From a virus: 64,000 nt of DNA. The notes beneath the pieces were generated by a model. It saw only the letters and a program-made list of their open reading frames with translations. It searched no databases and was not told the origin of the DNA. Where the stretch lies: the IMG/VR virus record IMGVR_UViG_3300041409_000599, positions 16,461 through 80,460 of that record. The stretch is one strand, 5' to 3'. Each line of letters opens with the position of its first letter. The stretch's first letter is position 1. This document shows, one piece after another, positions 9,792 through 33,743 of this stretch. Made by a program: the position numbers and the translations under genes.

Positions 9792-10558
9792 AGTGAAATG
9801 TCCCTCTTCGCGTCAGCAAACCAGCCAGGGTTGGCCGAACTGTTGAACACGATCTTTCCTTTGACGGCTGAGATTGATTCGTTGTAGCAATCGCCGGCAT
9901 AGGGCTGGAATGCCGACTCGTCGTTGAACAGTCCCCACGGGTGATAGAACCTGATCTTGCCCTTGCCGCTGGGAATACGCAGGATCTCGGAACCGTTGGC
10001 AAAGGCCAGTATCTCTGCCGCCTGGGTGTCCGCCGGCTTTACCAGTGGGTGAGCCTCTTTCAGCCAGTCCGGCTGATTGCCGTAGAGCACCTTGGCGTAA
10101 TCAACCAGTTCTGTCGCTTTCTCGCCTTCCATGGTTTGGAACAGCACGCGACGTTCCGGGAACTTCATCGCCTGCCACAGAAAGAATGCGACGATGCCCC
10201 ATGACACCATCATGTCGCGGCTCTTCTCCCACCAGTAAACCGGCTCGTCCGGATCCATCAACAGATCGAACATTGGCTGGAAGTAGGGCTTATCGGGGAA
10301 AGGCTCGTAAGGGCTGGGGCGATGTTCTTCTACCCAGTGAGGATTGAATGTTTTGGTGAAATGGCGGGCCCAATGGTAGGGATGGCGCGTAGCGTCGGCG
10401 ACCTTCTCCATCAGCGTTTCAAGCTGCTGGGCCTGTTCGGTGGCTGAGCCTTGGGCCTGGGCTTTAAGACGGCGGGATTGATTGAGTTGGACCTGCGCAA
10501 AGACGCGCAAATCCAACGGCGCCGGGTTCTCCGGCGACCACTGATCTAGTATGCTCAT
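9788..10558 (-). CDS. terL: Terminase large subunit, N-terminal (ATPase) half
   Basis: Walker A-like EKSRDMMVSW, Walker B FNDESAF, motif III SSANPG. Confidence 0.85.
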   Translation of the reverse strand: MSILDQWSPENPAPLDLRVFAQVQLNQSRRLKAQAQGSATEQAQQLETLMEKVADATRHPYHWARHFTKTFNPHWVEEHRPSPYEPFPDKPYFQPMFDLLMDPDEPVYWWEKSRDMMVSWGIVAFFLWQAMKFPERRVLFQTMEGEKATELVDYAKVLYGNQPDWLKEAHPLVKPADTQAAEILAFANGSEILRIPSGKGKIRFYHPWGLFNDESAFQPYAGDCYNESISAVKGKIVFNSSANPGWFADAKRDISL

Positions 10559-10587
10559 TCGACAAATCGCTCAGAATTTGTAACGAA
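10558..10587 (-). promoter_or_regulatory. Hairpin with CTGAGC loop abutting the TerL-N start codon
   Basis: TTCG(TT)ACAAATT-CTGAGC-GATTTGT-CGAA, then ATG. Confidence 0.6.
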
Positions 10588-10610
10588 CGAATCTGCTTTT
10601 AGGGGATACG

Positions 10611-11093
10611 TTAGTTGACGCTGCCCTGGCCGCCGCTCTCAGACTTTGGCCAGTATCCGTGCTCTACAAAGAATTCCTTTTCCGCTTCGCTCTTGCCTTC
10701 CAGTTGTTTCCTGAACTGATCGTGCTCCTGGCCTTTCACCATGAAGCCCTGCATCTCAGCCACTAGGCGCAACGCCGCCACCTGGCCTGTGATATTGCTG
10801 TTCGTTTCTTTGGGCAGCATGTCGGCCAGCTTCAGCGCTCGTTCCGTCACGTCGATCTTGCTGGCCTTGGTGGCAATCTTCCGGGCTGATACCTCAACCA
10901 TCTGCTTCCGCTTTTCCTCGATCGCCTTGGCAATCTCTGGTATCTGCATCAGACGAAACGAGTCGCGTGCCGGATCGGAGAACCCAGCATCGCGCGCCGC
11001 CTGTACGTCATCACCCTTCCACGCCAGCACGTAGGCCATGCGCATTTCCGTCCACTTGAATTTGTTCTTGCCGGTTCTCTTGTGTGACGCCAT
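10611..11093 (-). CDS. terS: Terminase small subunit
   Basis: QAARDAGFS..RLMQIPEIAKAI HTH; lies directly upstream of TerL. Confidence 0.75.
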   Translation of the reverse strand: MASHKRTGKNKFKWTEMRMAYVLAWKGDDVQAARDAGFSDPARDSFRLMQIPEIAKAIEEKRKQMVEVSARKIATKASKIDVTERALKLADMLPKETNSNITGQVAALRLVAEMQGFMVKGQEHDQFRKQLEGKSEAEKEFFVEHGYWPKSESGGQGSVN

Positions 11094-14000
11094 TACCGCT
11101 CCTCAAAGGCATGCAGTGCACCTTCGCGTTCGCCTTCAATGGGATTGCCCCGCATGGTGCTGACGGCCTTCTTCAGCATGATTGGCCGGATAATCGCTTT
11201 CTCTTCCGGCGTGGCCGCGTTGAATACCTTCTTTACGTCTGAGTAGCGATCGAGGCGCGGCAGGTAGAAGCTCAACTCGTCCAGCGCCTGCTTCTTCAGT
11301 TGGGCTTTGCGCTCCTTCTGGCTCAAGTCGCCGGACTCGATGCGCGCGCGCTTGTCGTCCAATTGCTTCTGCAGGTCCGGAGTCAGCGCCATGTTCTCGC
11401 GCAGGAGTTCGTGCATCAGCCGCACCGCGGTCGATTGCGTTTCGGAATTGGGGAAGGTAACGCCAGCCTGGTAGGCCAGCAGGTCGCGGGTCGGAGTCTC
11501 TGACCGTTCTGCCTTTTCTACCTGCTGCGTCGGGCCCAGGGCGCCAGTAATCTTTTTGCCCACATCATGCGCGATCGTTGCCGCCGGCGCATGCCGATCG
11601 TAGATCCTGCTGCCGCTGTAGAAGTCACGATTGAACGCCAACTCCGCCGCTGTCTTCGGCAGGACCGCCGGCGTGAATGTTCCCTGAATCAATTCCTCTG
11701 GCGGCTTGTTGCCTTTTACAATCTCATTCACCAGATACGGCACCGCCGAAGCGCCAGAGCGTACCATGCGCGCCTTGGGGTCGCCCGTAATCTTCTTCAG
11801 CAGTTTGTCCCACATCTCATAGGCCACAAACGTCAGCAGCCCCAGCATGAACAGGTGATCAAACCCGCGCGCCCGGTCCTTCCATGTGCTGTCCGGGCTA
11901 GCCGCTTCCTTCAACATCTGCCCGTAGGATTTCCACACGCCATAGTGGTACCGGCTGAATACCGTCAGCATGTGGCTGTTCATGAATTTCGAAAGACCAT
12001 GCGAGTTGAGCACCCGTGAAGGGATCCGGTAATCAGGGATGTGCTTCGCCGTCTCCGCAGCAGCCTCTTCAAAGGGCATGCCGCCCAGGGCTTTCTCATA
12101 GGTCGCCTGCAGAAAAAAGATATCGTTCGACATCCACGTCATCTTCTGCCCCAGCTTGTACAGCCCTTTCATCATGTCCAGATGGTTGGCGTAGCCGGCC
12201 GCTTTCGCCAGCATGCTCGCCACGTCGGTGTGATGGTCAAGGTAGCCGAGGATTGAATCCACCAGGTGCTTATGCAGTTCGCGCAGGTCCTGGCGATGGC
12301 TCATCATCGGCGCGCCGTGGTCCAGCGCCTGCACAAAGTCGTCGTTCTGCGTTACCACGGCTTTGATTGCCCGAATGCCGGCTTTGAACGAACGCGGATA
12401 CCTGAACACGTTGAAATTGCCGGTGACGCCTCGTTCCACCAGCCAGTGATTGCCGATGTTATAGACGTGCCGCGCGGGATTGAGCACCAGGGACGCTGTC
12501 ATCAGGTTGCCGATCTTTTCCATGGCGCCGGCAGGGTCGGCATGCAGTTCGTCGGCAAAGCGGTCCAGCGTTTCCGCCAGATGCTTTTCAAAATAGTAGC
12601 CATTGAATTGCGGCAGGTTCACCGTGCGCCAGCCGTCCGGAGGCATCTCGCCATGCTCCGGCTTGAAACTCAGGCTCTTGAACTCAGGGTCTTCCTTCAT
12701 CGCATCGAGCGCGTCATTGGCTCGTTCCGCGCGCCGAAGTTGCAGATAGTCCACCACGGTGTTGGCCAGCGCGTTCTTGTAGTAGCGAACGCCGGTGTGC
12801 TCCTCAATCTCTTTAGTTGTGGCCTGCTTCAACGTCCAGCGCTGGCCGTCTTTATCGTTGAACTCATCTCCCACCTGCAAGCCGGGCTTGTCTTTGGCGA
12901 ACTCTGAAGCGCTGCCGTTATCGAACGCCGTCATGGTGTCGCCATTGCGATGGACCACCACGCGCTGGCCGTCTTCGTCTTCCGCGGCAAACATCCGGCG
13001 CCCTTTGAGAGAACTGGCCGCTTTCGATAGCACGTTGCCTTTGCCGGTGCCGCCTTTGCCGCGCATGGCGCGTTCCATCTGGTTGTTCTTGCCCTGGACC
13101 TCGCGATGGATATAACCGTCGTCCTCGCCCATGGGAACGCCGGCCTTGTTCAGCTTGGCGCGCATTTCGGAATTGGCGTCCATCAGCGGCTGTACTACGC
13201 CCTCAAGGTTGGCCTGCTGCCGGGCCGTCAGCGCTTCGCCGCTATCTTCTTTATGGTGGTAGATGGCGGCCTGGTCTTCGGGCGAGGTTGTCGGGCCCAC
13301 GGCCTTCAGCAGCTTGATCACGCGCAGCACGTCGGCATCTGACTGCTTGCCCAGCTGGTAGAGCGTGTCGTCAATATTCTTGGCCGCTTTGTTTAATCCC
13401 GGTTCCAGTACTCGGTCCCAGGTCTTTTCTTTCGCGGCCTTCACCAGATCGGCTACGGCCGATGGAACGTTGAGACGGGCAAAGCCGGATTCACCGCTCT
13501 TGTCCTTGAGCGTCTTCAGTCCGACGGTTACAGTCTTGCCGTCGTCGGTCTTGACCCGGGCAATATTCATTTCCGGGTGGACGTACTGCACTTGACCGCT
13601 GCGGCCATCGGCCAGGGTTACGGTTTCGCCTTTGGCTGGTGCGCCCGGCTGATTGAATAACCCGCTCTGCCCGCTCGCTTCCGAATCGCGAAACAGCGGC
13701 GAGTTGCGTTCCATTTCGCCGGTCTTGGTGCTTATCGATTCTTTTGGCGCGGTAATCTCGCGCGAGAGGTCTTCGCCGTGCTTTTCAGCAACGGCTTCCT
13801 TTTCTGCCGCAACATGAGGTTCCATGCCGGGCAGTGTTGGCTCTTCAGATTTGTTTTTTGGTCTGCGTAGCTCTTCCAGGTCGGAAGGTTTTACTGAGGC
13901 TTGCCGGTCGGCGTTTCCTGCATCTTCTTCTGCATGTCCTGGATGCTCTTGAACTCGTTCAGCACCCTGCCCTTCGCTCCCGGTGACAGCTTTTCGTAGC

Positions 14001-17000
14001 TCGGCTCTGACGGCTTGGTAGGCTCTGCTCTTAACGTCTTCCGGTTTGTGGTATCCACTGGCTAACTCCTTGGCGGACTTTTCCAGAATGTCATTGACCG
14101 GGCCGGTGTGCGAACTCAGTTTATTGTACGCCTCCTCGGCCTGCCCGGCGGCATCGGCAATCTTTCTGTTCTGCTCGGCCTTCAGCTTCTGGCCCTTCAC
14201 CTGGCCCAGCGCGGACGCTTTGTCCTCGGTCGCCACTGATCCAAACACCCTGCGCTCTTTTGCTATCTGCGCTTTGATGTGCGCCGATATCTCCGCTTTC
14301 TCCAGAGCCAGAGAATGGATCTGCTGATTGGCGCCGAACAATCCCCCTTGCTCAATGGTCTTGTTGCCGGAGTTGCCCACGAACCGCGCCAGCTCCGCGA
14401 CCGTCGCATCAGTAACGCTCTTGCCTTGCTTCTCGCGCTTGTCGAGCAGTTTTAGAATCGCTTCCTGCTGCGCCGGATCACTCGTCGCCTGTCCGATGGC
14501 CACGCCGCGGCCTTCGCTCATCTTGCCCGTGGCCACACGCTCAAAGATCGATTGATCGAGTTTAGATAGCGCCAGGCCGTCCGCGGCTTTGGACTCGCCC
14601 AGGGAGATGCCGTGCTTGCTCAGGTCGGCGGGTGAGATGCCGCTCTCGCGGAAGAATTTTGCCGCGTCGACGGCTGTCCCTCTGCCTTCAGCAATGTTCT
14701 GCAGGGCGCCCGTTGCGCGCGCTTCGCCTGCGGTGTCAACATTCAAATGGCGCGCAAGAAGATCATGTGCGCCGTTTTCTTTTGCCAGTTGAACGCGATG
14801 GTGTCCATTGACCACGTAAGTCTTGCCATCGGCGGGATTGTGCCAGATGGAGACCACGCCAGCCAGATCGTCATTCCATTTCTGCCCGGAAAGAAGGTTG
14901 GTTACGCCGTGTTCGTTGGTGTTGAGTTTGTACTGAAATTCTTTTGGCGCGATCGTGAGGTCATCCACGCGGACGCGGCCAGCCTGCCCTTTGGCCGGGA
15001 TGCCTTCAGGCAGTTGATGCTCAATCTCTGATTCGTGGAAGGTCTGGGGAGCTACTTCTTCGGTTCCACCTTGAGTGGCGGCTTCATGTCCGACTTCAGT
15101 AATTCCTCTAAGCTCACCACGGGCACGCTCTCCGGCTGCTTCTCTGGCGGTCTTGTGTTTGTGGAGTTCGGCTTCTGCGGATTTGAGGTCGGTTCCTGTG
15201 CCATAGCTAAAGTCTACTCCTTGGAGCGTGACGGTATTTCCATCTGCATCGGTGACGGTAAACTCGCGGTTCCTGAGGATCGCGCGCGCCTTTTCCAGCC
15301 CGGCTTTCAATTGCTCCGGCGATTCACCGCGATAGAGAAATTCATCACCCTTCTGATGGTAAGCGTCCAGTCCGGCTTCTTTCGCCGCTTCGGCTTTGGC
15401 CACCAGAATAGTGTTGCCTGCCTTGTATCCAAACTTGTCATTGAAGGCTTTCAGCGCGTCGGCGTCCGACATGGCCACCGCCGGCGACGAGGGCGCATCG
15501 TGGAAGGCGCGGCCATTCGGAATTGGCATCTCTGTGTGTGTGCCGTCGCCATTGTCCAGCCGCGACGTGTGCAGTTCCCGCGCCATCTCATGCGGCTTCA
15601 TATCCGCCACGCGCTTGCGCTCGGCCACGTTGGTGCGGCGGTCCGGCTTGTTGCCGTATACCGTACCTTTGCCAGAATCGTAATCGGGAAAGAGCACGAC
15701 TACATTGTGTGGGCCGTACTTTTTCCCTGCGGATCGGCCACCTTCGTGGCGCAACCCGTGATATCCCATCTCCACCAGATTCTGGGAGATGTCGCCGAGC
15801 AGGTCCTGAATTTCGTAAGCCGGGATGCGCTGCGCCGCCGATTCATCCCGTAATTCTGAATAGATGTGCGTGCCCTTGGTGCCTTCAGGAAAGGCAGACA
15901 TGCCCAAGGGGGTGTACTGTTCAATTCGTTTATTGAAGAGCTGGAGAACTTTGTCCGGCAGAGGCTTTTCCAGATCCAGAACTTTTGCGCCTGGTAACTC
16001 GGCTGAGAGCACGTGACGCTGTTCTGTCCTACCCTCGTCAGGTTTTCTGGTTCGCTTGTAACCTTCTGCCACTTTCGGATTATCGGTAAGGTAAAGCCCT
16101 GGACCGTAAATGTTCAATTCACCGGAGAACCCTACCGGATCAGCCTCTTTCAGTTCCGTCAAACCATGGGGCGTGCCGTGATAAAACGTCTTGCCGCCGG
16201 GCAATTCCTCGTGTGTCAATGGTTCATATTTGTAGCCGCCTTCAAGGGGTATGCGTTCTTCTGTCCCATCTCTCTTGCTGACGACAACATGGTCCACAGG
16301 GATCTTGCCGCCCTCCAGATGGCTGCCGCCTTCATATTTGGCAACATGTTCCGGCTTCACGTAGCCCAGAGTGACGTGCGGCTTATACTCGCCGTGGTCG
16401 TCCGGCTTAAACTCGCCGGCGCCCTCAACCGCTGAACGCAAGGCGTTAAGTTCGGGAGATTTCTCCACGTGCACAATGACTGGATGGGCACCTTCCTTGG
16501 TGGCCGGGAATGATCCAGTCTTGCCGACCGTGGCCTCAAACGGCGCTATCTTGGCCGCCGCATCCTTTATATGGGCGATGGCTTCAGGGCTGTCGTCTTT
16601 CAGGCCATAACGCACCGTAACGTGCGGAGTCTTTTCCTTGCCGTTCGGCCCCAGATGCTCTTCCGGGATGGCCGCAACCGCTTCGGTATGCCGCTGGCCC
16701 AGCTCGCTCTTGGGCTCGATATTGACTTGCGTGGACGCATATTCATGCGCTGGCTGGATGTCATTCTCGGTGAATACTTTAGGAGCAGCTACTTCCTGTT
16801 TTGCTCCCTCATTTCCGGTCAGATTTTGGGTAGATTGAGACTCCTGGGGCACACCAGGAGCCTGTGTTTCGCCCAAGTCAGTCTGAACCGGCTGCGGAGT
16901 GGGTGCCTGTGGCTCTTGAGCCGGTGTTGCCTTCGGTGGACGCGAACTGGCTAGGAACTGTCTGACCGGTGCTGCCGGCGTACTTGTGGCTTCAGGTGTC

Positions 17001-18550
17001 CTATTGGCAGCTTCCGGTGAGCTTTTGGCCGGTTGCTGTGAGCTTTCGGTCTTTACTTGCACCTTGGCCGCTTCAGCCGTGGCCTTATCGTGCGCTGCCA
17101 CGCCATCATTAATAAGCTTGGCCGCCAGTGCTTCCGCTGCGTCGGGCGTCTTCGCGATGTGGATCTTGCCATCCACCACGACCTTGCCCTTGTTGTCGGC
17201 AATCCACTGCGTCAGGTTCTGGTGCGCCTCGTCGATAACCTGGTTGCGTTTTCCTTCCGGGACTTTTGCGATCGTCTGCGCCAGATGGTCAACCTGCGCG
17301 CCCGAAAGCTTGTTGCCAAACTCCTCGCCCGGAGTGGGTGGCGGCGGCGCCGGAGGCGGTACCGCTGGCCTTCCTGCAACAACGTTCTTGGCCATCGTCG
17401 CGGAGGCGTTGGCCTTCACCATCGACGCAACCTCAGAAGGCATCGGCCTTGGAGGTGCTTCAGGATTGTGCGGCGTACCGGTTATTTCTCCCGGCCCGGG
17501 TCCAAGTTGGCGTGGCTGGCCGGTTCTTCCAGTTGATGTGTCGCCTTCCGGTGCGGCTTTGTCCTCATAAGAAAATCCTCGCGAGAACTTTCGTCCGAAT
17601 CGCGTATCACCGACTTTGGCCCCAATCGTCACGTCTTCCGGGGTCACGCGGACACCGCCAGATACCCTGTCACCAAAAGCGGAGAACTCTCCTATCCGGG
17701 TTGGACGTGGTCCCGGGCCTTTACCGTAGCCGGACTTCAGCCCGGAAACCACGCCCAGGGCTGACGGCGCAAACATCGACACCGTGCGAATCAGGTCTTC
17801 ATCTTCAGGCGATACATGCCCGTGGACGGCTGCGCCTGCGCCCTCGCTGGCGAGCATGCCTGCGCCGAATCCCAGCGCTGTCTTGGCCGGGGCCATCACA
17901 CCAGATGCCGCTACCAGCGGCAAACTGACATCGCCTACGCCCTTGATGGTTTCAGCAATGCCGCTCATTTCCTGCCGCCGGGCTGCTTCGGGCATCCGTG
18001 TAAGCGGTACGCGCTGGCCGGTACGAGGATTGGTAAAGAACGCGCCGTTGTCCGGTACCTGCTGGCTTTCAGCTTTCTTGATGTCGCTGGCACCGCTGGC
18101 AATCTGCTCCGGGCCAGTCGTAAACGGACGCGCCGGATCATAGATCGGCATATCCGCTTCAGGCACGGCAGAGAGTGGAACGCGCTGGCCAGTCCGAGGA
18201 TTCGTGAAATGGCCGTCCGTTGGTTCCTTCGGTGCACCTGCAACCGGAGCCAGCGGCATACCGGCGGATTCACTGGCGGCAGTCTGTGGACTCTTCGCGC
18301 GCGCCACGGACGCCTGTGTGTCTTTGTCCGGCTGGTTCCAGAGCGTTCCAACCACATCAGAAAACTTTGGCGCAGGACGAGACGCGGCCGGTGCTTTGTA
18401 TCCGGGAGAGCCGGGGCCAAGGGGATTGCCGCCGAGCGCAGTTCCGGTGCTGGGTTTGGCTATCTCGTCTTCGCCGAAGGTGATCGGCTTGGACGACTGG
18501 CCGGACTGATCGATGTCCTGATCGCTAAAAACTACCGGGGAATCGGGCAT
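11093..18550 (-). CDS. Giant polyvalent internal virion/ejection protein (2H phosphoesterase, ART-like, GGDEF-like and ParB-like domains)
   Basis: PHVTV/PHVTL; YHGT..GPGLYLT; NDKFG..KGDEF; VNGHHR; position after other ejection proteins. Confidence 0.85.
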   Translation of the reverse strand: MPDSPVVFSDQDIDQSGQSSKPITFGEDEIAKPSTGTALGGNPLGPGSPGYKAPAASRPAPKFSDVVGTLWNQPDKDTQASVARAKSPQTAASESAGMPLAPVAGAPKEPTDGHFTNPRTGQRVPLSAVPEADMPIYDPARPFTTGPEQIASGASDIKKAESQQVPDNGAFFTNPRTGQRVPLTRMPEAARRQEMSGIAETIKGVGDVSLPLVAASGVMAPAKTALGFGAGMLASEGAGAAVHGHVSPEDEDLIRTVSMFAPSALGVVSGLKSGYGKGPGPRPTRIGEFSAFGDRVSGGVRVTPEDVTIGAKVGDTRFGRKFSRGFSYEDKAAPEGDTSTGRTGQPRQLGPGPGEITGTPHNPEAPPRPMPSEVASMVKANASATMAKNVVAGRPAVPPPAPPPPTPGEEFGNKLSGAQVDHLAQTIAKVPEGKRNQVIDEAHQNLTQWIADNKGKVVVDGKIHIAKTPDAAEALAAKLINDGVAAHDKATAEAAKVQVKTESSQQPAKSSPEAANRTPEATSTPAAPVRQFLASSRPPKATPAQEPQAPTPQPVQTDLGETQAPGVPQESQSTQNLTGNEGAKQEVAAPKVFTENDIQPAHEYASTQVNIEPKSELGQRHTEAVAAIPEEHLGPNGKEKTPHVTVRYGLKDDSPEAIAHIKDAAAKIAPFEATVGKTGSFPATKEGAHPVIVHVEKSPELNALRSAVEGAGEFKPDDHGEYKPHVTLGYVKPEHVAKYEGGSHLEGGKIPVDHVVVSKRDGTEERIPLEGGYKYEPLTHEELPGGKTFYHGTPHGLTELKEADPVGFSGELNIYGPGLYLTDNPKVAEGYKRTRKPDEGRTEQRHVLSAELPGAKVLDLEKPLPDKVLQLFNKRIEQYTPLGMSAFPEGTKGTHIYSELRDESAAQRIPAYEIQDLLGDISQNLVEMGYHGLRHEGGRSAGKKYGPHNVVVLFPDYDSGKGTVYGNKPDRRTNVAERKRVADMKPHEMARELHTSRLDNGDGTHTEMPIPNGRAFHDAPSSPAVAMSDADALKAFNDKFGYKAGNTILVAKAEAAKEAGLDAYHQKGDEFLYRGESPEQLKAGLEKARAILRNREFTVTDADGNTVTLQGVDFSYGTGTDLKSAEAELHKHKTAREAAGERARGELRGITEVGHEAATQGGTEEVAPQTFHESEIEHQLPEGIPAKGQAGRVRVDDLTIAPKEFQYKLNTNEHGVTNLLSGQKWNDDLAGVVSIWHNPADGKTYVVNGHHRVQLAKENGAHDLLARHLNVDTAGEARATGALQNIAEGRGTAVDAAKFFRESGISPADLSKHGISLGESKAADGLALSKLDQSIFERVATGKMSEGRGVAIGQATSDPAQQEAILKLLDKREKQGKSVTDATVAELARFVGNSGNKTIEQGGLFGANQQIHSLALEKAEISAHIKAQIAKERRVFGSVATEDKASALGQVKGQKLKAEQNRKIADAAGQAEEAYNKLSSHTGPVNDILEKSAKELASGYHKPEDVKSRAYQAVRAELRKAVTGSEGQGAERVQEHPGHAEEDAGNADRQASVKPSDLEELRRPKNKSEEPTLPGMEPHVAAEKEAVAEKHGEDLSREITAPKESISTKTGEMERNSPLFRDSEASGQSGLFNQPGAPAKGETVTLADGRSGQVQYVHPEMNIARVKTDDGKTVTVGLKTLKDKSGESGFARLNVPSAVADLVKAAKEKTWDRVLEPGLNKAAKNIDDTLYQLGKQSDADVLRVIKLLKAVGPTTSPEDQAAIYHHKEDSGEALTARQQANLEGVVQPLMDANSEMRAKLNKAGVPMGEDDGYIHREVQGKNNQMERAMRGKGGTGKGNVLSKAASSLKGRRMFAAEDEDGQRVVVHRNGDTMTAFDNGSASEFAKDKPGLQVGDEFNDKDGQRWTLKQATTKEIEEHTGVRYYKNALANTVVDYLQLRRAERANDALDAMKEDPEFKSLSFKPEHGEMPPDGWRTVNLPQFNGYYFEKHLAETLDRFADELHADPAGAMEKIGNLMTASLVLNPARHVYNIGNHWLVERGVTGNFNVFRYPRSFKAGIRAIKAVVTQNDDFVQALDHGAPMMSHRQDLRELHKHLVDSILGYLDHHTDVASMLAKAAGYANHLDMMKGLYKLGQKMTWMSNDIFFLQATYEKALGGMPFEEAAAETAKHIPDYRIPSRVLNSHGLSKFMNSHMLTVFSRYHYGVWKSYGQMLKEAASPDSTWKDRARGFDHLFMLGLLTFVAYEMWDKLLKKITGDPKARMVRSGASAVPYLVNEIVKGNKPPEELIQGTFTPAVLPKTAAELAFNRDFYSGSRIYDRHAPAATIAHDVGKKITGALGPTQQVEKAERSETPTRDLLAYQAGVTFPNSETQSTAVRLMHELLRENMALTPDLQKQLDDKRARIESGDLSQKERKAQLKKQALDELSFYLPRLDRYSDVKKVFNAATPEEKAIIRPIMLKKAVSTMRGNPIEGEREGALHAFEER

Positions 18551-18569
18551 TTGGATTTATGATTGGGGC

Positions 18570-18770
18570 ATGAGAGGACGCGATAATTCAAAAGAGCGCT
18601 ATTGGCAAGCGTCGGTAATGTGTGCGTTGGGATCGCTAGTCTACGCTGTGTTTTTTGGAATCGCGATTGCTAAGCAATTCCCTACTGCCGTGCCAATAAT
18701 TTACGCTCTGATATGTGCATGGTTTCTGTGGCACGCCAAACGTCTATGGGATGGCGATGTAGCTCAATGA
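18570..18770 (+). CDS. Small 2-TM membrane protein (antisense moron)
   Basis: Two hydrophobic helices; TATGAT -10 at 18558-18563 gives a leaderless ATG. Confidence 0.6.
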   Translation: MRGRDNSKERYWQASVMCALGSLVYAVFFGIAIAKQFPTAVPIIYALICAWFLWHAKRLWDGDVAQ

Positions 18771-25773: not shown

Positions 25774-25781
25774 CGACTGGG

Positions 25782-26162: not shown

Positions 26163-26209
26163 CTGCTGTGCTCCTTGAAGGATTTTGAAATTGGTTTTAA
26201 GGACTGGTC

Positions 26210-26908
26210 TTACGGACGAGGTAGAGTGAAGCCGCTTCCGGTCTCTCTGCGTGACATTCTGCCCACGCGCCTGTTCTTCGAAAGATTCGCCTTGGTCAGC
26301 GCGATGTTGAGGTCATCGAATGTTTCCTTCTCTTCCTCCTCGTAATCGACGACAAGCTGTCTGCGTCCGCGCGCCTTGGCCACCGCTCGAACCATCAAAT
26401 ATGAGAGAACTGGGTTAGCGGTAATCTCAATCTCGATCGGTGAATTGCCGTCGGTCAGCGGGTCAAAGAGGAAGTCCCCGGTGACTCGCAGATCAAGCGC
26501 GGTCGAAAACCTGCTCACCTGCAGCTTGCGCCGGATCCACGCCCATGCGCTGAGTTGCGGAATTCCGGCAACAATATCCGGCAGCTTGTCCAGCGGCCCG
26601 GAGGCTTCAAGATAATTCGAAGCATCCTGTCCCGGCAGCTTCCACTCCACCATGCGCGGCTGCACCATCAGGGCCAGCACTGCGCCAGGAGCCTGATACA
26701 CGCCAAGATCAGGTATGCCGGCCGCCACCGCAGGCAGCTCAATCGTGACTTGGTCAAAGTTGTGGCCGTTGGCGCGCAGCTTGTTGTAGAGCCGGTCATA
26801 CTGGTTTTGCGCGAAGCCGGTAATGTAGTCCGGATCGCCGTCGCCCGTACCTTCCGGGTCATCCAGCATGAACTGCACGCGGCTGATGATGTCGCTAAGA
26901 AGTGCCAT
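26210..26908 (-). CDS. Head-tail adaptor/tail tubular protein A-like
   Basis: LSDIISRVQFMLDD N-terminal helix; size and position. Confidence 0.65.
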   Translation of the reverse strand: MALLSDIISRVQFMLDDPEGTGDGDPDYITGFAQNQYDRLYNKLRANGHNFDQVTIELPAVAAGIPDLGVYQAPGAVLALMVQPRMVEWKLPGQDASNYLEASGPLDKLPDIVAGIPQLSAWAWIRRKLQVSRFSTALDLRVTGDFLFDPLTDGNSPIEIEITANPVLSYLMVRAVAKARGRRQLVVDYEEEEKETFDDLNIALTKANLSKNRRVGRMSRRETGSGFTLPRP

Positions 26909-27308
26909 TGGCGGTAGCTTCAATTCTCTCGAATCGCGAATATCCTTCGATGGTGTGCTTGCGTTGCTCTGTGGGCGGCAGCTTTAAGAATGGAGAGCCG
27001 GGCAGAGGATCATGAATTGGCACTCCGTCGTGCATCACGAGTGCGTGAAGGATGCCCGGGGCAAGTAAAACGTGAGCCACCGAATAGCCCTTTGGCCACG
27101 GCCCCCAGTTTTGCTCATCGTAGGTCGTACATGTCCACTCATATCCAATCGAAGCAAAGAATTTATGCCAGCGTTGCCGCCACTCTTCCTCGTCTGGAAT
27201 AGCTGGGTCAATGTCAGGTATTTCTTCCAGTTCCAGCACGGACGCAACGCAAGCGCCGAAGCAGTTCCCAGTGGGTACACCGAACGTTGTCTGAAATACG
27301 TTTTTCAT
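26895..27308 (-). CDS. Papain-like (C39-like) small protein
   Basis: GNCFGACVASVL..HALV..HDP putative Cys-His-Asp triad. Confidence 0.55.
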   Translation of the reverse strand: MKNVFQTTFGVPTGNCFGACVASVLELEEIPDIDPAIPDEEEWRQRWHKFFASIGYEWTCTTYDEQNWGPWPKGYSVAHVLLAPGILHALVMHDGVPIHDPLPGSPFLKLPPTEQRKHTIEGYSRFERIEATANGTS

Positions 27309-27311
27309 AAG

Positions 27312-27347
27312 AAAATTAAAAGAGGCGCGGTTTCCGGCCGCGCCTCT
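27312..27347 (-). terminator. Rho-independent terminator
   Basis: AGAGGCGCGG/CCGCGCCTCT stem followed by TTTAATTTT. Confidence 0.75.
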
Positions 27348-27371
27348 CTGTCGTTCACCTGCGAAACGAAG

Positions 27372-28514
27372 TTATTTCTTCGTCTCAGTCTTTCCACCAG
27401 CAGGTTTCTTGGCTTTGCCGCGTTCGGCTTTCTGCTTCTCGCGCTCTTCATAAATTGCTTCGGCTTCGGCGTACTCATCTGAAGTCAGCGCGTCGAACTT
27501 GGCATGTCCCCACTCGATCGCGTAATCCTTAAACGCTTCCAGGGCATTCAGGATGCTGTTGCAGCTCAGGCACTTGTATGCGCCCTTGCGCCGCGGCGTT
27601 CCGCAGGCCTTGCAGTTGTCCTGTTCCAGCCCTTCGTCCGAGCGGTCGCCCGGGTTCCAATCCGGAAGCTTTGCAATCAGCCCTTCGGACAGCAGCACTT
27701 CTGAGATCAGCATGTGCTTGGGCGTGACCAGAAACTTTCCTTTGCCGCCGGGCAGGTTGTAATCCCGGTAAGCCCGCCGATACTTGTCCAGATAAATGCG
27801 GTTGCGCACCTGCCGCGCTTCCTCAATCAACTCGGACAGCTTGCGTTTGATCGGCACGGCAATCATCGCCGCTTCTTCCTGGTCTTCCGCGTTAAAGACC
27901 ACGCCCGGAACTTCGCGTGTCTGCACGCGGCCAATCGGATCGTAGACCTCAACTTCGCCCATCTTGTCAGGATGGCCATCCCCTTCGTAGACAATCACGC
28001 CGCCGCCATCGTTGTGCTGATCGGAAAACTCGCGCACAAACTGCGCCGCCAGGGTGATTGGCAGAATCTCCATAAACTTCTGCGTTCCGTCCTCGTTGTA
28101 TTCCCAGTCCATGCGATAGCCACGAATGTGGTGGTACGCGAAGGGCATTCCGGGATGGCAGGCCGGAATCTGGATGCCGCGCAGCAGCCTGATACCGGAG
28201 GGAAACATTAGGTCCCAGGGATGCAGATTGATGACCGTGGCCGCTTTCGCCGGCGTTGACCGCATGCGCGCGCGCAAATCGTTCAGGCTGTTTTGTGACT
28301 TGTCGTCCAGACGGTTGGCGCTCTTGCGCTGCTCGGCTGTCTTCGCGCTGATCAATGCATCCAGCATCGGATTGGCCTTGGCAAACTCTTCCGCCGCCTT
28401 CGATGTCTGCTGCGCCGCGGGTGACAGACGCACCGCGCCACCCTGATAGGGAATCACGCGATCGGTGGAGGGCAGTGGACCGCCCGGCATAGGTAATGAT
28501 GTTTCTTCAGACAT
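27372..28514 (-). CDS. Hypothetical protein with C-terminal Zn ribbon
   Basis: CKAC..CLSC; SD AAGGAG. Confidence 0.7.
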   Translation of the reverse strand: MSEETSLPMPGGPLPSTDRVIPYQGGAVRLSPAAQQTSKAAEEFAKANPMLDALISAKTAEQRKSANRLDDKSQNSLNDLRARMRSTPAKAATVINLHPWDLMFPSGIRLLRGIQIPACHPGMPFAYHHIRGYRMDWEYNEDGTQKFMEILPITLAAQFVREFSDQHNDGGGVIVYEGDGHPDKMGEVEVYDPIGRVQTREVPGVVFNAEDQEEAAMIAVPIKRKLSELIEEARQVRNRIYLDKYRRAYRDYNLPGGKGKFLVTPKHMLISEVLLSEGLIAKLPDWNPGDRSDEGLEQDNCKACGTPRRKGAYKCLSCNSILNALEAFKDYAIEWGHAKFDALTSDEYAEAEAIYEEREKQKAERGKAKKPAGGKTETKK

Positions 28515-28525
28515 AGGTTCTCCTT

Positions 28526-28583
28526 GCCGCGCTCAGGCGGCGTTCGTGGTTATAGGTTTTCCATTGCCCGGCGCTTAGACCGG
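28526..28583 (-). promoter_or_regulatory. Tandem CTAAGC/CTGAGC-loop hairpins before the RBS
   Basis: CCGGT-CTAAGC-GCCGG, then GCCGC-CTGAGC-GCGGC-AAGGAG. Confidence 0.6.
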
Positions 28584-28651
28584 ATTGTGGATTTGGGTGC
28601 TCGAATTTTTACAGGTGGTTAAAAATTTTACGGGGTGTAAATAATTTCGCG

Positions 28652-29425
28652 TCAGTTTCCGTAATTGCCCTTGAGTCCCGCCTGGTCGGCTAATTGCTGC
28701 CTGATTCTTCCGGCGCCCAGACTCAACCGATTACGCAGGTTCCCCAGCGGACCATCCTTCATCAGGTTCTCGATCATGTTCCTGCGATTGGCCTTCTTCT
28801 TCTGTAACGCCAGTTCGCGCCGCTGCAACAGCATCAGCACACGTTGCTTTGCGCTGGCCGGCCGCTCGTCGATCTGCTTCATGTCAAAGCGAATCGCTTC
28901 AGCAATCTGCGCTTCTGTCAGCATGTAAGGCGTAGGCCCGGCGCAGTACTCGTAATCGCCGTGCTGTGGATACGGACCCAGAACGCTCTCGCCTTTGAAC
29001 CTGTAGTTTTCCCATTCGGAAGGTGAGCCATAGGTGTGCGAAGCTTTCCATTTCTCCAGCACGAAACCCTCGTAGCCGTACACAGGGATTTCCTTCAGAC
29101 CCAGCGTCACGCTGCGCGGCCTGACCGCAAGGCGCGATTGCAGGAACTCGGTTATTTCCTCAACGCACTTCTTTTCCTGCACCATCTCGCGCATCTCGCC
29201 GATGCCCAGGCCTGAGATGTCATCGAGCGAGGCGTCTTCTGGCCATTCGTTCCACTCGCCCGACGCGATGGTATAGCGGTCCTGCGCCAGAATCAGCCGG
29301 TACAGCGGTTCGCCGTATTGATTGGTCCCACCCACAATCAGGATCTTCCGCAGCAGCTTGGGCGGGATGGCGATCGAGGGATGCAGGTCGCGGCGTTTCA
29401 GCCTGCCGGTCTTCACCTGCTTCAT
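28652..29425 (-). CDS. Hypothetical phage protein
   Basis: 257-aa ORF in operon. Confidence 0.7.
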   Translation of the reverse strand: MKQVKTGRLKRRDLHPSIAIPPKLLRKILIVGGTNQYGEPLYRLILAQDRYTIASGEWNEWPEDASLDDISGLGIGEMREMVQEKKCVEEITEFLQSRLAVRPRSVTLGLKEIPVYGYEGFVLEKWKASHTYGSPSEWENYRFKGESVLGPYPQHGDYEYCAGPTPYMLTEAQIAEAIRFDMKQIDERPASAKQRVLMLLQRRELALQKKKANRRNMIENLMKDGPLGNLRNRLSLGAGRIRQQLADQAGLKGNYGN

Positions 29426-29863
29426 TTAGCCGACCACCACGCGAATGTCTTCTTCGCGGATTTGCGCCACCTGATGGCCGCCAATCTCGATCTGCATAGC
29501 CGAGTACTTGGTATAGACCACGTAGTTTCCGACTTTCACTTCCAGCGGCACCCGCAGGCCGTTTTCAATGTAGCCGCTGCCAACGGCAATCACGATGCCG
29601 CATGTCTGTTCCGCCCGCGCCTCTTCCGGAATGATGATGGAGGAATAGTGCTCGCTCGGCGGCAATGGCAACACCAGTATCTTGTCGCCCAGGGGACGCG
29701 CTTTAATTGCCACCAGGTCGTCAGCGACATTGAGCGCTTCTGTGACCAGATGCGCGGCCCGGACCATCACGGGAAGGTTGGCGTCGGTGACCTCGTCCTG
29801 TTTCCTCGCGCTCAGGCGATTGTCGGTGACTTTCAAAATAGAATCGGTTTTGGTCATTGACAT
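29426..29863 (-). CDS. groES: Co-chaperonin GroES homolog
   Basis: RPLGDKILV, IIIP, GIVIAVGSG, PLEVKVG, KYS, IREEDI. Confidence 0.9.
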   Translation of the reverse strand: MSMTKTDSILKVTDNRLSARKQDEVTDANLPVMVRAAHLVTEALNVADDLVAIKARPLGDKILVLPLPPSEHYSSIIIPEEARAEQTCGIVIAVGSGYIENGLRVPLEVKVGNYVVYTKYSAMQIEIGGHQVAQIREEDIRVVVG

Positions 29864-30252
29864 TACTGCTTCCTTCCTTTCACGTCTTCGGTCATGAGCA
29901 TGGTTCCCAACATAAATACTGACGCAAAGACCTTGCCGTCGTATCCCACCAGATTGACCTGGTTGGGCAGCACTTGCAGGTTCTGCATGATTGGCTTTTT
30001 GTTGACGGTGATGGTGGGCATATCAGGATCGGGGCTCACCGGAGTTCCCGGCGCCGCTTCCTCAATCGTGCCCAGTTGTTCATACGCCATGATGGCGATA
30101 GGGTGCATCACCAGGCTGGCGCATTTCTCGTTGCTGGCAATCCACTTCACCGTATCAACGCGCATAAAGCGCTGCGCCATCGCGAATTGCTTTCTCAGTT
30201 CCGCATCGCTTGCGTTCTCAAGGGTAGGGGCATTCTGTTTGCGGTTCGTCAT
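29863..30252 (-). CDS. Hypothetical protein
   Basis: ORF coupled to neighbours. Confidence 0.6.
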   Translation of the reverse strand: MTNRKQNAPTLENASDAELRKQFAMAQRFMRVDTVKWIASNEKCASLVMHPIAIMAYEQLGTIEEAAPGTPVSPDPDMPTITVNKKPIMQNLQVLPNQVNLVGYDGKVFASVFMLGTMLMTEDVKGRKQ

Positions 30253-30716
30253 GCGTTCTGCACCGCCTTCAGGTAATCGCTGATCGTGATTCCAGTGTTG
30301 AGAACAACTTGTACGCAGCGATCATCCCAGAGTTCGATCATGCCGAAGTCCTTGGTGCAGGTGATATCGAGAACGGCACCAAAATGCTTATCGCACCAGA
30401 CCTGAATAAAAGACCTGGCGTTCATCGTTTCATTCCAACGCTTGAGCCATTCCTTGTGTTCGCTCTCAATACGTTCCAGTTCTGCGGGTGCACTAACTGC
30501 ACCTTCGGCGAGCTTCTTATAGAGCCATGGCTGCGTTGGCTCCGGAGGGCAATACACTCTTGCCGTGAAAATCTTTACCGTCTTGCCTTCAGCCAGCCAT
30601 CCCTTCACTCGTTCCACCATCGGCATGATTGGTTCGCCGATGTGCTCCGGGCCTTTCCATCCCGCGTAATGCGCCAGCGTGCCGTCTAGGTCTACGCCGA
30701 TCCAACCGTTGTGCAT
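30249..30716 (-). CDS. HAD-superfamily (PNK phosphatase-like) protein
   Basis: IGVDLDGTL, FTAR, WDDR. Confidence 0.8.
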   Translation of the reverse strand: MHNGWIGVDLDGTLAHYAGWKGPEHIGEPIMPMVERVKGWLAEGKTVKIFTARVYCPPEPTQPWLYKKLAEGAVSAPAELERIESEHKEWLKRWNETMNARSFIQVWCDKHFGAVLDITCTKDFGMIELWDDRCVQVVLNTGITISDYLKAVQNA

Positions 30717-30768
30717 CTTTCCTCCAGAATTTCAGGGCCCACCAATGCGGCAGACCCTGACAGGTTTT

Positions 30769-30807
30769 AGCTAATTGCTAATTGCTTCCTTGCTAATTGC
30801 TTAATTG
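30769..30807. repeat. Short GCTAATT tandem repeats (similar motif at ~48695-48717)
   Basis: gctaattgctaattgcttccttgctaattgcttaattg. Confidence 0.5.
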
Positions 30808-32081
30808 TTCGTCGGTACTTTTCCGCCGGTGATCGCAGCCTGCGCCATCGGATTGTTCACGTACCACTGCTCGGCGCAGACCCAGTACATGACTTCCTGC
30901 ACGGTCGGCGTGCCGGTCGTCGGATCCACCAGTTGGAAGATCATCTGATTGCCGCGGTTCTTGAACCAGAATTGGCCCTGTCCCCACTTGATGGTGTTCC
31001 ATGCTTCTTTGAGCAGCAGGTCCCAGCGCGTCTGGTCGGCGTGCTGGTTGATGTAAATCTTCCTGCCATTCAGGGTGAAGTCGGCAAACAGCGGATCGTA
31101 CGTGCCCGCCTTTCCGCCATCCAGGGGCACATAGCTGTCACCGAAGGCCATCTCTTCCACCGCCTGCAACTGTGACGGATGCGTGTGGTAGAACTGGTTT
31201 TTCAGGCCCTTCTTGCCCAGCCGCTGAATGATCTGGTTCTGCAAGATGCGGAACACAGGCTTGGTCACCTGCGCCGTATTCGACAGATTCAGACCGTTCG
31301 CCACCACGTAAGGCAATGCGCGGCTGATGCCGTACAGGTTGCCCGCCGTCGAGGTGCTGACGAAGACCGGGATGCCGTTCACAAACTGCGGTCCGCCCGG
31401 AGTTGCGCCGCCAACGATGATCAAATCGCCGGCCACCGTGCCCGGAGGAATCGCGTCCACTTGGAACTGCTGTGTGCCGCCCAGCGCCTTGAAGACGTTC
31501 TGGATGGTGCAGCTTCCACGCAGCACGTACGCCGGTGACATGACCTGAACGGTCTGCTGTTCCTGTCCCAGATGCGCGCCGCGGCCATCGATTGTGCTCG
31601 TGGTGGTCGAACGCAGGTTGATGAAGTTCGCGCCGGTGGTCGAATCCACCGAGCCGATCGAACCGTCACCAGGCGTCTGCAACCAGATATCGCGGCAGCG
31701 GATTGCCTCTTCCACGATGTCCGAGATGGTGTCGGTCACCGCGTTGTCCGTGGCAACGCCATCGCCTTCGCCCACCAGTTGCGCCAGTTGGCTGTACTGG
31801 ATAGGCAGGGTCCACGCGACGGGAGTGAGCAACATCTGGTCGTACTTGTTGCCAACGCCGTTAGGCAGCGAGCCCTGGTCAAGGCCGATCTGTTGCGGGT
31901 TGGAAGCGATTGCGGTCTTCAGGCGCGCGCGGAACGAGCGCAGAGACACGCGGGTTGCTTTGCCGGCGCCGTTGCCGAGCAGGCGGGCCAGTTCACCATC
32001 GGTATCAACGGTGTTGGCAATGTTGGGGGCAAAGGCTTCCAGTTGCAACGGGAGAGCCTGTACTGCTGTTAGAGGCGGCAT
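30801..32081 (-). CDS. Major capsid protein
   Basis: 426 aa, downstream of scaffold; GIP..YGISR and NNPMAQAAITG C-terminus. Confidence 0.8.
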   Translation of the reverse strand: MPPLTAVQALPLQLEAFAPNIANTVDTDGELARLLGNGAGKATRVSLRSFRARLKTAIASNPQQIGLDQGSLPNGVGNKYDQMLLTPVAWTLPIQYSQLAQLVGEGDGVATDNAVTDTISDIVEEAIRCRDIWLQTPGDGSIGSVDSTTGANFINLRSTTTSTIDGRGAHLGQEQQTVQVMSPAYVLRGSCTIQNVFKALGGTQQFQVDAIPPGTVAGDLIIVGGATPGGPQFVNGIPVFVSTSTAGNLYGISRALPYVVANGLNLSNTAQVTKPVFRILQNQIIQRLGKKGLKNQFYHTHPSQLQAVEEMAFGDSYVPLDGGKAGTYDPLFADFTLNGRKIYINQHADQTRWDLLLKEAWNTIKWGQGQFWFKNRGNQMIFQLVDPTTGTPTVQEVMYWVCAEQWYVNNPMAQAAITGGKVPTNN

Positions 32082-32105
32082 GAAACTTGTCTCCTGGGAA
32101 AGCGC

Positions 32106-33665
32106 TTACTTCCGTGCCGCGAACGCTCCGCTCCGCTTCATCTGCTCTTTGATCAAGTGCTCGCGCGGCATCTCTTCGTTCGGGTGCGCCGCGGCCCATT
32201 CGGTGCGTATCTGGGCAATCAGCGCATTCGGATCGGTTACAGGTGCCGGTTGTGCGGGTGTCGTAGAGCGAGTCTTCGGGTCGGTGTTCGAGGCGGCGGT
32301 TTGTGTGGTGCGCGTTTCCTGCCGGGTTTCCTGACGGGTGAGCGTGCCGCCCTTGGCTTCGCGGATAACTTGCGCCGCGATCGGGCCAAGGATCTGGTTC
32401 GTCCACTTCAGCAGATGCGCGAGATGTTCTTTCTCCCGCGTCTCGCCTGGTGCACGACTGAGGATCGAATCAAGAGCAGGTTGGTAATAATCCAGCTCTG
32501 CCAGCTTCTGATCAACAAGCTGGCCGATTTTCACCATTGCGGCGTTTTGCTCGAACTCCGTAAGTCCGGCGGTTTTGAATTTGGGTTGCAACTGGGCAAC
32601 GATGGAGTCTTCAGCTTTCTTCTCCGCGCGCTCAATCGACTGCGTATTTACTTCGGTCCTGCGCTTGATGTCGGCCTGCTGGTCGGATTTTTCTTTCTCC
32701 GACACGGCTTGCTCGCGCTGCTTGAGTGAATCCGCGAATGGCTTCAGTTCTTCCGGGACTTCCCCTAACGCCGGGGAGGACGGCGCGTTTACCTCCTCAA
32801 GGATGTCCAGGGCGGCTAAGAGCCGTTCGTTCTGGGTTGACTCAGCTTTGGCCCTCAGCACAGAGAGCCGGTTATCGAAAATGTGATTGAAGGTGTTCAG
32901 TAACGCGGGATGAAACTTGTATTGGCCCTTCTCGTCGAGGACCGGCTGGCCCTTGTCGTCGGTGTACATGGCCATCTGCGTCCACTTGTCCAGAAACTTT
33001 CCCGCGCCTTCTTTGGTCGTGGCGCCAAGGAACAGGTTGTCGGTGGACTGCCACGTCGCAGCGCCTTGTGCCATCACCTTCGCGGTTTCAACATCGGGAA
33101 CAATCTGCCGGATCTCGCGGTTCTCCGCGTCTCTCCGCAGTGCGCCAAAGACCTGGCCCTTGAGTTCAGGGTTATCGTCAAAGAACTTTTTGGTGGCCGG
33201 GTCAGCCTCGATCGCTTTGGCGAATTCCTGCGGTCCCAGACTTGTGCCATCGTCCAGTTCAGGGACTTCTGCGGCTGCGGCCGCTGCTGCCTGTTGTTCT
33301 TCCGGTGTCGGAGCGTTGGGAGCGGTCGGGTCTTGCTGCTCTGCCGCGGCGGCTGCTTCGGCAATCTGTTCCGCCGTCTGCGTTGCCGGCACTTCTGCCG
33401 GGACCTCAGCAGGCACTTCGGCTGGTGCTGCGCTGCCATTGCCTTCTTCCAGTGGCACGGAAGCCTTAGCTTCGTCCCATCCCGCGCGTAGCTTGTCCTG
33501 GATCGACAGTTCGCCAGAGGGATTACTTGCTGGCGTTGACGCTGGTGTAGAAACTGGCGTAGGCGTAGCTGATGGAGTAGGCGCAGAACTCGCTGGCGCT
33601 GCCGGTGCGGGAGTGCTCGGAGCTGATGGGGCCGCTGGTGCGGACGGTGTGATGACTTCAGACAT
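32106..33665 (-). CDS. Capsid scaffolding protein
   Basis: P/A-rich N-terminus, helical acidic body, lies between portal and capsid. Confidence 0.7.
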   Translation of the reverse strand: MSEVITPSAPAAPSAPSTPAPAAPASSAPTPSATPTPVSTPASTPASNPSGELSIQDKLRAGWDEAKASVPLEEGNGSAAPAEVPAEVPAEVPATQTAEQIAEAAAAAEQQDPTAPNAPTPEEQQAAAAAAAEVPELDDGTSLGPQEFAKAIEADPATKKFFDDNPELKGQVFGALRRDAENREIRQIVPDVETAKVMAQGAATWQSTDNLFLGATTKEGAGKFLDKWTQMAMYTDDKGQPVLDEKGQYKFHPALLNTFNHIFDNRLSVLRAKAESTQNERLLAALDILEEVNAPSSPALGEVPEELKPFADSLKQREQAVSEKEKSDQQADIKRRTEVNTQSIERAEKKAEDSIVAQLQPKFKTAGLTEFEQNAAMVKIGQLVDQKLAELDYYQPALDSILSRAPGETREKEHLAHLLKWTNQILGPIAAQVIREAKGGTLTRQETRQETRTTQTAASNTDPKTRSTTPAQPAPVTDPNALIAQIRTEWAAAHPNEEMPREHLIKEQMKRSGAFAARK

Positions 33666-33683
33666 GACGATTCGTTTCCTTCC

Positions 33684-33743
33684 TCGGCGCTCAGGCCGAT
33701 TTGGCGGTGAAATAGAAAGGCCCAGCCGCTTAGGGCTGAGCCT
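33684..33743 (-). promoter_or_regulatory. Tandem CTAAGC/CTGAGC-loop hairpins (first may be a terminator) before the scaffold RBS
   Basis: AGGCTCAGCC-CTAAGC-GGCTGGGCCT-TTCTATTTC; TCGGC-CTGAGC-GCCGA-GGAAGG. Confidence 0.65.

Follow-up and report, generated by a model that had tools for sequence, protein, structure and literature searches.

The late genes of the virus in IMG/VR record IMGVR_UViG_3300041409_000599 raise the question of why one six-nucleotide loop, CUGAGC or CUAAGC (CURAGC), recurs on RNA hairpins whose stem sequences are unrelated. The window analyzed here is a stretch of 64,000 nucleotides, bases 16461–80460 of the 80,460-bp record, which is rated complete. A first-pass annotation had described five such hairpins at the translation starts of late genes and had read them as a protein-binding RNA operator, either a boxB-like antitermination site or a translational operator. 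We found that the hairpins are a real and conserved phage RNA hairpin family, with few copies in mixed contexts. The family is uncatalogued: no Rfam match at the gathering score was obtained in the whole window, and a search of the two regions that hold paired hairpins returned only noise (≤15.6 bits) at E values up to 10.

All six annotated sites, five hairpins and a weak sixth copy, were present on the minus strand with small trims of their coordinates. Stems of the five were 5–11 bp long with G-U pairs allowed, and that of the sixth was 4 bp. Two hairpins precede the gene of a conserved 380-aa protein (ATG at 28514). The upstream one, at 28567–28584, is uccggu-CUAAGC-gccggg (6 bp, two G-U pairs, no U-tract), and it scored 22.7 bits with a covariance model. 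The second, at 28526–28541, is gccgc-CUGAGC-gcggc (5 bp, 22.6 bits); it was present in the minimum free energy (MFE) fold and ends 1 nt ahead of an AGGAG Shine–Dalgarno (SD) sequence, reading on as a-AGGAG-N6-ATG. Another two precede a scaffold-like gene (ATG at 33665). The upstream hairpin of this pair, at 33717–33744, has 11 bp and a CUAAGC loop, is followed by UCUAUUU, lies 27 nt past the stop of the open reading frame (ORF) 33772–34344, and scored 21.1 bits. The SD-proximal one, at 33684–33699, is ucggc-CUGAGC-gccga (5 bp, 23.4 bits), followed by GGAAGGAAA-N9-ATG. The fifth hairpin, acaaauu-CUGAGC-gauuugu at 10581–10562, lies in the leader of the TerL-like gene. It has an A/U-rich stem of 7 bp, scored 18 bits, and is followed 3 nt later by the ATG at 10558. 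This leader has no SD, and an extra 7-bp outer helix of the whole structure (10556–10589, −11.6 kcal/mol in the MFE and centroid folds) pairs the start codon at 10558–10556 and buries the AUG. In the predicted fold, the TerL hairpin is thus part of a start-burying structure.

RNAfold predictions on the intergenic regions contained all five hairpins, in either the MFE or the centroid structure. Within each pair, the CUAAGC hairpin comes first and the CUGAGC hairpin second, with loop starts 42 nt apart ahead of the 380-aa gene and 39 nt apart ahead of the scaffold-like gene. G-U pairs occur in three stems of the window and in one related sequence, and the complement strand would have A-C mismatches at these positions, which indicates RNA, or at least sense-strand, structures. 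The first-pass annotation was correct in these respects, that is, in the five minus-strand hairpins with a common loop and different stems (18–23.4 bits), in the order and the spacing of about 40 nt within the pairs, and in its use of G-U wobbles to fix the strand. Its sixth copy did not stand. This site, ucgc-CUGAGC-gcga at 29806–29819 with 4 bp, lies on the minus strand inside the coding sequence of ORF 29426–29863 and was missing from the MFE fold. It is probably a chance occurrence, since its score of 15.7 bits cannot be separated from noise when the best non-member reached 15.9 bits in 132 kb of phage and relative DNA.

The decisive evidence came from relatives of the 380-aa gene, in which the loop could be followed over evolutionary distance. 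Alignment A1 of the 380-aa protein contains four independent lineages with upstream DNA (L010, L013/L016, L011 and the G001 prophage), 40–51% identical in protein; the closest relatives, P0002–P0004, are 82–87% identical, and the leader comparison rests on the four lineages. A hairpin with the core GC-CU(N)AGC-GC, or a near variant of it, was found at the same place ahead of the SD of the gene in 4/4 lineages. In L010 (48% identical), it is acggc-CUAAGC-gccgu followed by gc-AGGAAAGGA; in L013/L016 (45%), cucgc-CUUAGC-gcgag followed by a-AGGAG; in L011 (40%), cgucagc-CUACGC-gcuggcg followed by UUUUUU; and in the G001 prophage (51%), cggc-CCCUAGC-gccg followed by c-AGGAG. Apart from a C/A-rich tract, the flanks of the hairpin could not be aligned among the lineages. 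The two closing pairs (G-C, C-G) and the loop were kept, while the outer three pairs varied with compensation.

This pattern was also seen in a nine-sequence alignment of the members (A2). All loops were 6-nt CUNAGC/U, with one 7-nt variant and with C at position 4 in L011. All 45 of the 45 cells paired, four of the five pairs differed in both partners among the sequences, and as many as five pair types occurred at one position; controls in which the register was slid paired in only 19–56% of cells. The 7-nt loop of G001 is uncertain and may be 6 nt. A poly-C run lies in the area of 9900–9935 of its locus L019, and the 380-aa, scaffold and TerL homologues of this prophage, which belongs to an Acidobacteriaceae metagenome-assembled genome, are frameshifted, probably through long-read homopolymer error.

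Further copies were found in some relatives. The scaffold orthologue of G001 is preceded by cccgcagc-CUGAGU-gcugcggg and then CUUUUCAUU, the counterpart of the window hairpin at 33744–33717. The scaffold orthologue of L010 has an 11-bp hairpin that abuts the SD and carries the loop CUAACCC, and L010 also has a terminator with a CUGAGU apex. L013/L016 has a weak 3-bp copy, GC-CUCAGC-GC, 44 nt upstream of the SD-proximal copy. The TerL hairpin is not kept ahead of the G001 TerL homologue. No such hairpin was found upstream of the distant 380-aa homologues L009, L017, L018 and L020 (23–32% identity) or upstream of those in G494 and G743 (E values of 1e-44 to 1e-48).

Two side observations were made in these leaders. 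In L016, an 18-bp A/T-rich hairpin with a CUAAGC loop (307–348) immediately precedes an ORF of 249 aa with low GC and many Cys pairs, and a 3-bp CUCAGC hairpin lies 37 nt further upstream; the ORF, which is two genes ahead of the 380-aa homologue, is possibly a homing-endonuclease-like insert. In the window, the A/T-rich 67 nt that separate the first hairpin of the 380-aa gene from the stop of ORF 28652–29425 contain two CCNGTAAAAWTT direct repeats 19 nt apart (28604–28634, minus strand), and CTTTTTAATTA repeats occupy the equivalent place in the G001 prophage (L019 9866–9910). The presence of A/T-rich direct repeats in both suggests a promoter before the 380-aa gene, and the CCNGTAAAAWTT repeats may be its promoter or an activator site.

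We then asked whether the loops could have come together by chance. The 80-kb genome contains about 126 CTNAGC words, of which only five have stems of 5 bp or more; the flanking stem was 0–3 bp in all but the six sites, and all six are on the sense strand of the late genes. Within the late operon, which is longer than 30 kb and has intergenic sequence of 513 nt in total, 5 of the 12 sense-strand CTRAGC words fell in these 513 nt (hypergeometric p = 1.5e-6). Approximately five of the roughly eight strong intergenic hairpins of the late operon bear a CURAGC loop. The whole-phage scan that the first-pass annotation had proposed was thus positive for position and unremarkable for number: the hexamer occurred 44 times against 67 expected in shuffles, a deficit that is partly due to the stop codons that it contains, and the genome-wide count of hairpins alone is weak evidence.

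It is possible to argue that unrelated hairpins merely share a hexamer, or that they are copies of one duplicated leader cassette. The unremarkable genome-wide hexaloop count agrees with the former and the gene starts hint at the latter: the 380-aa and scaffold-like genes (28505–28514 and 33656–33665, minus strand) both begin with ATGTCTGAAG (Met-Ser-Glu) after a CUGAGC hairpin and an SD, a common start that may reflect a duplicated leader cassette or a shared early-coding signal. Against both stand the intergenic concentration given above, the occurrence of the motif at an orthologous site in four lineages with different stems and proteins only 40–51% identical, and the full divergence of the stems while the loop did not diverge. 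Chance and shared ancestry are already disfavoured and, in our judgement, very improbable.

The hairpin was absent as a family from the candidate hosts. In the G001 genome, GCCTNAGYGC was rarer than its reversed control (47 versus 174), and the 46 non-prophage GC-CTNAGY-GC sites had stems of 2, 3, 4 and 5 bp in 31, 10, 3 and 2 cases, respectively, which is the null expectation of random extension. Model R1 gave eight non-prophage matches of at least 20 bits in 21.6 Mb from four Acidobacteria-type genomes, against five of at least 21 bits in the 0.08-Mb phage; the host counts are lower bounds, with 150 first-look candidates scored per genome. Six of the eight host matches were read, and these were GC-rich, coding-like DNA without an SD or U-tract. 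The hairpin family is thus not equally frequent in candidate host DNA, a result that disfavours both a loop of general stability and a housekeeping motif of the host.

Three other ideas about the loop were tried and rejected. A host repeat or an element like the repetitive extragenic palindromes was rejected on the host genome counts. A double-stranded DNA operator was rejected on the grounds that conservation is confined to the centre and not shared by the arms, an extra C interrupts the dyad, and G-U pairs are needed. A stop codon presented in the loop was also considered, as most loops hold UGA, UAA or UAG, but the frames disagree. The loop stops are in the stop frame of the upstream gene in the scaffold leader (offsets of 42 and 81 nt) and in L013 (51 nt) and out of it in the 380-aa leader (77 and 119 nt) and L010 (8 nt), and no start codon in that frame was found between the paired loops of the 380-aa leader.

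The next question is what the hairpins do, and here their contexts differ. Only two window copies, 28541–28526 and 33699–33684, touch an SD. In both, the SD stays unpaired and a C/A-rich unstructured tract lies ahead of the hairpin, as is typical of strong leaders. In a terminator scan, the hairpin at 33744–33717 had the form of an intrinsic terminator, a GC-rich hairpin directly followed by a U-tract, and it is a good intrinsic-terminator candidate; those at 28584–28567, 28541–28526, 33699–33684 and 10581–10562 did not have this form. Relatives also have terminator-like members with a following U-tract, at L019 4791–4812, L011 201–224 and L010 at about 12330–12375. In L010, the hairpin of the 380-aa gene fills a 35-nt intergenic gap with no terminator nearby, and is therefore internal to a polycistronic RNA and not at a 5' end. 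The annotated placement at translation starts thus applies to the two copies that touch an SD and fits less well the terminator-like upstream scaffold copy and the TerL copy without an SD. A pure translational operator is likewise not supported, as only some copies abut an SD and members here and in three relatives are terminator-like with U-tracts.

One explanation is a purely cis-acting structure without a dedicated factor. The hairpins would be intercistronic mRNA stabilisers or insulators and partial intrinsic terminators that set the segmental stability of the long late transcript and prevent upstream sequence from pairing with the SD, and the loop would be kept for folding, as a C1-G5 pseudo-triloop or a YUNR U-turn. 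The four members with a U-tract, the unpaired SDs behind C/A-rich tracts, and the fit of C-U-N-A to the YUNR pattern would agree with this. A loop kept for stability should however recur in host terminators and hairpins, from which it is absent. In the phage itself, other loops are found on the terminator at 27349–27319 and on the 12-bp hairpin ahead of gene 30716, and a loop sequence that is held while the stems turn over completely also speaks against a structural role. We consider this explanation unlikely.

A YUNR-type loop is also a classic rapid-pairing motif, and the loop could enter a kissing interaction with a loop of complementary sequence, either on a phage small RNA or on a different stretch of mRNA. 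A scan of the 80-kb genome for hairpins presenting GCUNAG returned only the antisense of the sites and scattered coding matches. The central N varies among sites of one genome with no matching partner, and six nucleotides offer very little pairing, so that RNA–RNA recognition of this kind is very unlikely.

We favor trans-acting recognition, because the loop is held against complete stem turnover, the family is restricted to the phage lineage, and it lies on the mRNA strand. The hairpin would be a phage-specific recognition element for a phage RNA-binding protein or nuclease that sets the translation or mRNA segment stability of selected late genes, and we give this reading a probability of roughly 0.4. 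A stem of 5–11 bp and free sequence, usually closed by G-C/C-G, would present the hexaloop C-U-N-A-G-C/U as the recognition surface for a probably phage-encoded RNA-binding protein or endoribonuclease, with an effect that depends on the site. At the SD-adjacent copies of the 380-aa and scaffold-like genes, the bound factor may compete with the 30S subunit, as at the T4 gp43 and ThrRS operators; at the TerL leader, it may lock or open the AUG-burying stem; and at the terminator-like copies, it may modulate read-through or protect the 3' end. The net outcome would be a coordinated dosing of a few late proteins. The analysis shows the structure, its strand, the conserved loop on covarying stems, the enrichment in the phage and the absence from candidate hosts, and we infer that a trans factor exists, as well as what it is and in which direction it acts.

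Several findings weigh against trans-acting recognition. Among 50 phage ORFs, no relevant RNA-binding protein was found with PHROGs and Pfam. The members are SD-adjacent, terminator-like or AUG-burying, and one mechanism for all of them is hard to sustain. Copies are few and unevenly distributed, with five here and one to three in relatives; canonical copies number one in G001 (81 kb) and one in L010, which has in addition the variants CUAACCC and apical CUGAGU. When 6144 hexaloop patterns, each with one free position, were scanned blindly, CTNAGC (5 hairpins in 126 words, p = 0.0035) did not rank among the top patterns. Finally, the window copies in A2, and some of the orthologous ones, were chosen for their pairing, so its 100% pairing is partly by construction, and its independent information is the orthologous position and the common loop. 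The interpretation of the first-pass annotation is supported in part: a strand-specific, phage-enriched RNA hairpin family with a conserved loop and covarying stems is present, and no binding protein was found.

A new post-transcriptional regulon is an extended form of this reading and is improbable. A single late protein would recognize the loop and exert feedback on the synthesis of itself, the scaffold and the terminase, tying dosage to assembly state, and the same factor would act at the terminator-like copies. The top candidate would be the 380-aa protein, which is attractive in this role, although RNA binding by it is pure speculation. Its gene has the best-conserved hairpin copy on its own leader and is followed by the strongest terminator of the region (27349–27319). 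The protein contains four invariant cysteines, C301, C304, C315 and C318, as a CxxC...CxxC zinc ribbon, and has about 38 relatives in soil metagenomes and Acidobacteriaceae metagenome-assembled genomes (MAGs). No Pfam, PHROG or PDB sequence match to it was found, and an Atlas search gave nothing usable. Its AlphaFold2 model (pLDDT 78) had no Foldseek PDB match at E ≤ 0.001, and the best VIA Z was 3.7. The link that had been drawn to the autoregulation of the P22 scaffold is an analogy only; to our knowledge, the RNA target of P22-type scaffold autoregulation has never been defined.

A compact conserved element with a 6-nt recognition loop ahead of scaffold, capsid-module and terminase-type genes is a directly testable handle. 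As far as we know, T4, lambda and P22 are exceptions among tailed phages, for which it is otherwise poorly understood how very different amounts of scaffold, capsid-module and terminase proteins are made from a single long late transcript, and almost no phage biology exists for Acidobacteria. The phage host is probably an acidobacterium, because soil metagenomes and two Acidobacteria MAGs are the sources of the relatives of the 380-aa protein.

The late module is one long minus-strand block from about 42 kb down to 8.7 kb of the window. It contains genes for a portal-sized protein (797 aa), the scaffold-like protein (519 aa, Ala/Pro/Glu-rich), a 426-aa protein and several small proteins, the 380-aa protein (27372–28514), an 889-aa protein, a 2485-aa multi-domain protein with a LigT/2H phosphoesterase match, and TerS-like and TerL-like proteins. 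Beyond the Ter and LigT/2H matches, almost nothing in the late-module proteins matched in PHROGs or Pfam. The large terminase appears as two ORFs of 256 and 358 aa with a 4-nt overlap (8715–10558, minus strand), and the TerL profile match is limited to the first of them (phrog_2, E 5e-6). The gene may be split or read through a programmed frameshift, or its nuclease half may be divergent. No close relative of the phage was present in the INPHARED phage collection, and none was found when viral contigs were scanned with the scaffold, P0019, the 380-aa protein or its alignment A1. Among sequencing runs, the probable source run and a soil run of low share were the only ones found, and no RNA run was listed; the contigs of relatives obtained were fragmentary and had no usable hairpin cover.

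Two other repeated elements were noticed. The 9-mer GCAATTAGC has five exact copies, all on the minus strand. Three are in tandem at 30770–30800, immediately ahead of the hairpin and SD of gene 30716; a fourth lies at 28689–28697, near the end of ORF 28652–29425; and the fifth, with the two near copies GCAGTTAGC and GCAATCAGC, lies at 48683–48712, right before the SD-less ATG of an 810-aa gene at 48669. The 9-mer may serve as a promoter of late genes or as a site for a regulator; alternatively, it may act as single-stranded RNA, having UYAGC in common with the hairpin loops. No such clusters were found in the relatives, and as a second form of the UNAGC site it is a lead only. In the hexaloop scan of the whole genome, CCGTAN, CNGTAT and CTGTAN were the most over-represented loops on stems of at least 5 bp (7/106 words, p = 2.5e-5 before correction for 6144 patterns), and they may belong to a second hairpin family.

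The hairpins were finally compared with known systems. A boxB element of the lambda/P22 type consists of a 5-bp stem topped by a GNRA-like pentaloop (GAAAA/GAAGA type); boxA comes ahead of it, and an early operon has one such site, directly past its promoter. The members resemble boxB/nut sites as phage RNA hairpins, some with a 5-bp stem, with a sequence-specific loop that a phage protein would read. A boxB-like site, as offered by the first-pass annotation, is not supported: the loop is a CUNAGC hexaloop and not a GNRA-like pentaloop, no boxA (CGCUCUUUA-like) sequence was seen in the 30 nt upstream of any copy, and the hairpins are inside the late operon and not close behind early promoters. 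PHROGs scans of 30 ORFs gave no antiterminator, with no search aimed at the N family.

The closest known architecture is that of the ANTAR dual-hexaloop targets (EutV, AmiR, NasR), which are tandem hairpins beside terminators or, in mycobacteria, beside the ribosome-binding site (RBS), with loops that need A1 and G4 (PMC8934654). The pairs at 28584–28526 and 33744–33684 are tandem hexaloop hairpins of this kind. However, their loops have C1 and A4 (C4 in L011), and the spacing of 39–42 nt between loop starts is wider. In ANTAR targets, the second hairpin overlaps the 5' arm of a terminator, so that the two folds are mutually exclusive; here, an SD and ATG come after the SD-proximal hairpins in place of a terminator, and in the scaffold pair the first hairpin is the terminator-like one. 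The ANTAR domain PF03861 was absent from the 80-kb phage, with one copy in the candidate host G001.

These comparisons bear on processive antitermination, in which a factor loaded onto the nascent hairpin would carry RNA polymerase past internal terminators of the late operon, as in the lambda N-boxB, LoaP-hairpin and ANTAR-hexaloop systems. Intrinsic terminators are present within the late operon, some members are themselves terminator stems, and the tandem hexaloop arrangement recalls the ANTAR architecture (PMC8934654). The loop, with C1, A4 and G5, is nevertheless unlike those of boxB and ANTAR, the phage has no ANTAR domain, and no Rfam match was found even at E up to 10. In addition, the SD-adjacent copies are not placed to compete with a terminator stem, and the L010 hairpin has no terminator nearby. 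Processive antitermination is thus quite unlikely.

In phage Mu, the zinc-finger protein Com binds a hairpin beside the start of the late gene mom and changes access to the buried start. This is similar to the TerL copy, which buries its AUG, and to the position of the best-conserved hairpin ahead of the gene of a zinc-ribbon protein; the 380-aa protein differs in having no sequence or fold similarity to Com.

In placement, the closest analogues are the start-associated sequences (SAS) and extended SAS (ESAS) of Cluster K mycobacteriophages, short one-orientation repeats at the translation starts of a subset of genes that are conserved across relatives, some with upstream inverted repeats of variable spacer (PMC3203893). 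The analogy is one of placement only. In SAS, a 13-bp linear sequence including the SD is conserved, and in ESAS the arms are conserved and the spacer varies, whereas here the loop is conserved and the arms are free. The SD regions of the hairpin copies differ (AGGAG, GGAAGGAAA, and none at TerL), no 13-bp GGGATAGGAGCCC-type repeat over the SD or 17-bp conserved inverted repeats were found, and there are 5 copies compared with 11–19 SAS.

The operator of T4/RB69 gp43 is a small hairpin just upstream of the RBS, and its loop bases, conserved between diverged phages, are recognition determinants (PMC3014915). It differs from the hairpins described here as a single operator on its own mRNA with a UAAC-core loop, while the present family occupies several sites, on different late genes, and includes terminator-like copies. 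The likeness lies in a loop-specific hairpin next to the RBS, as in the SD-adjacent copies of the 380-aa and scaffold-like genes.

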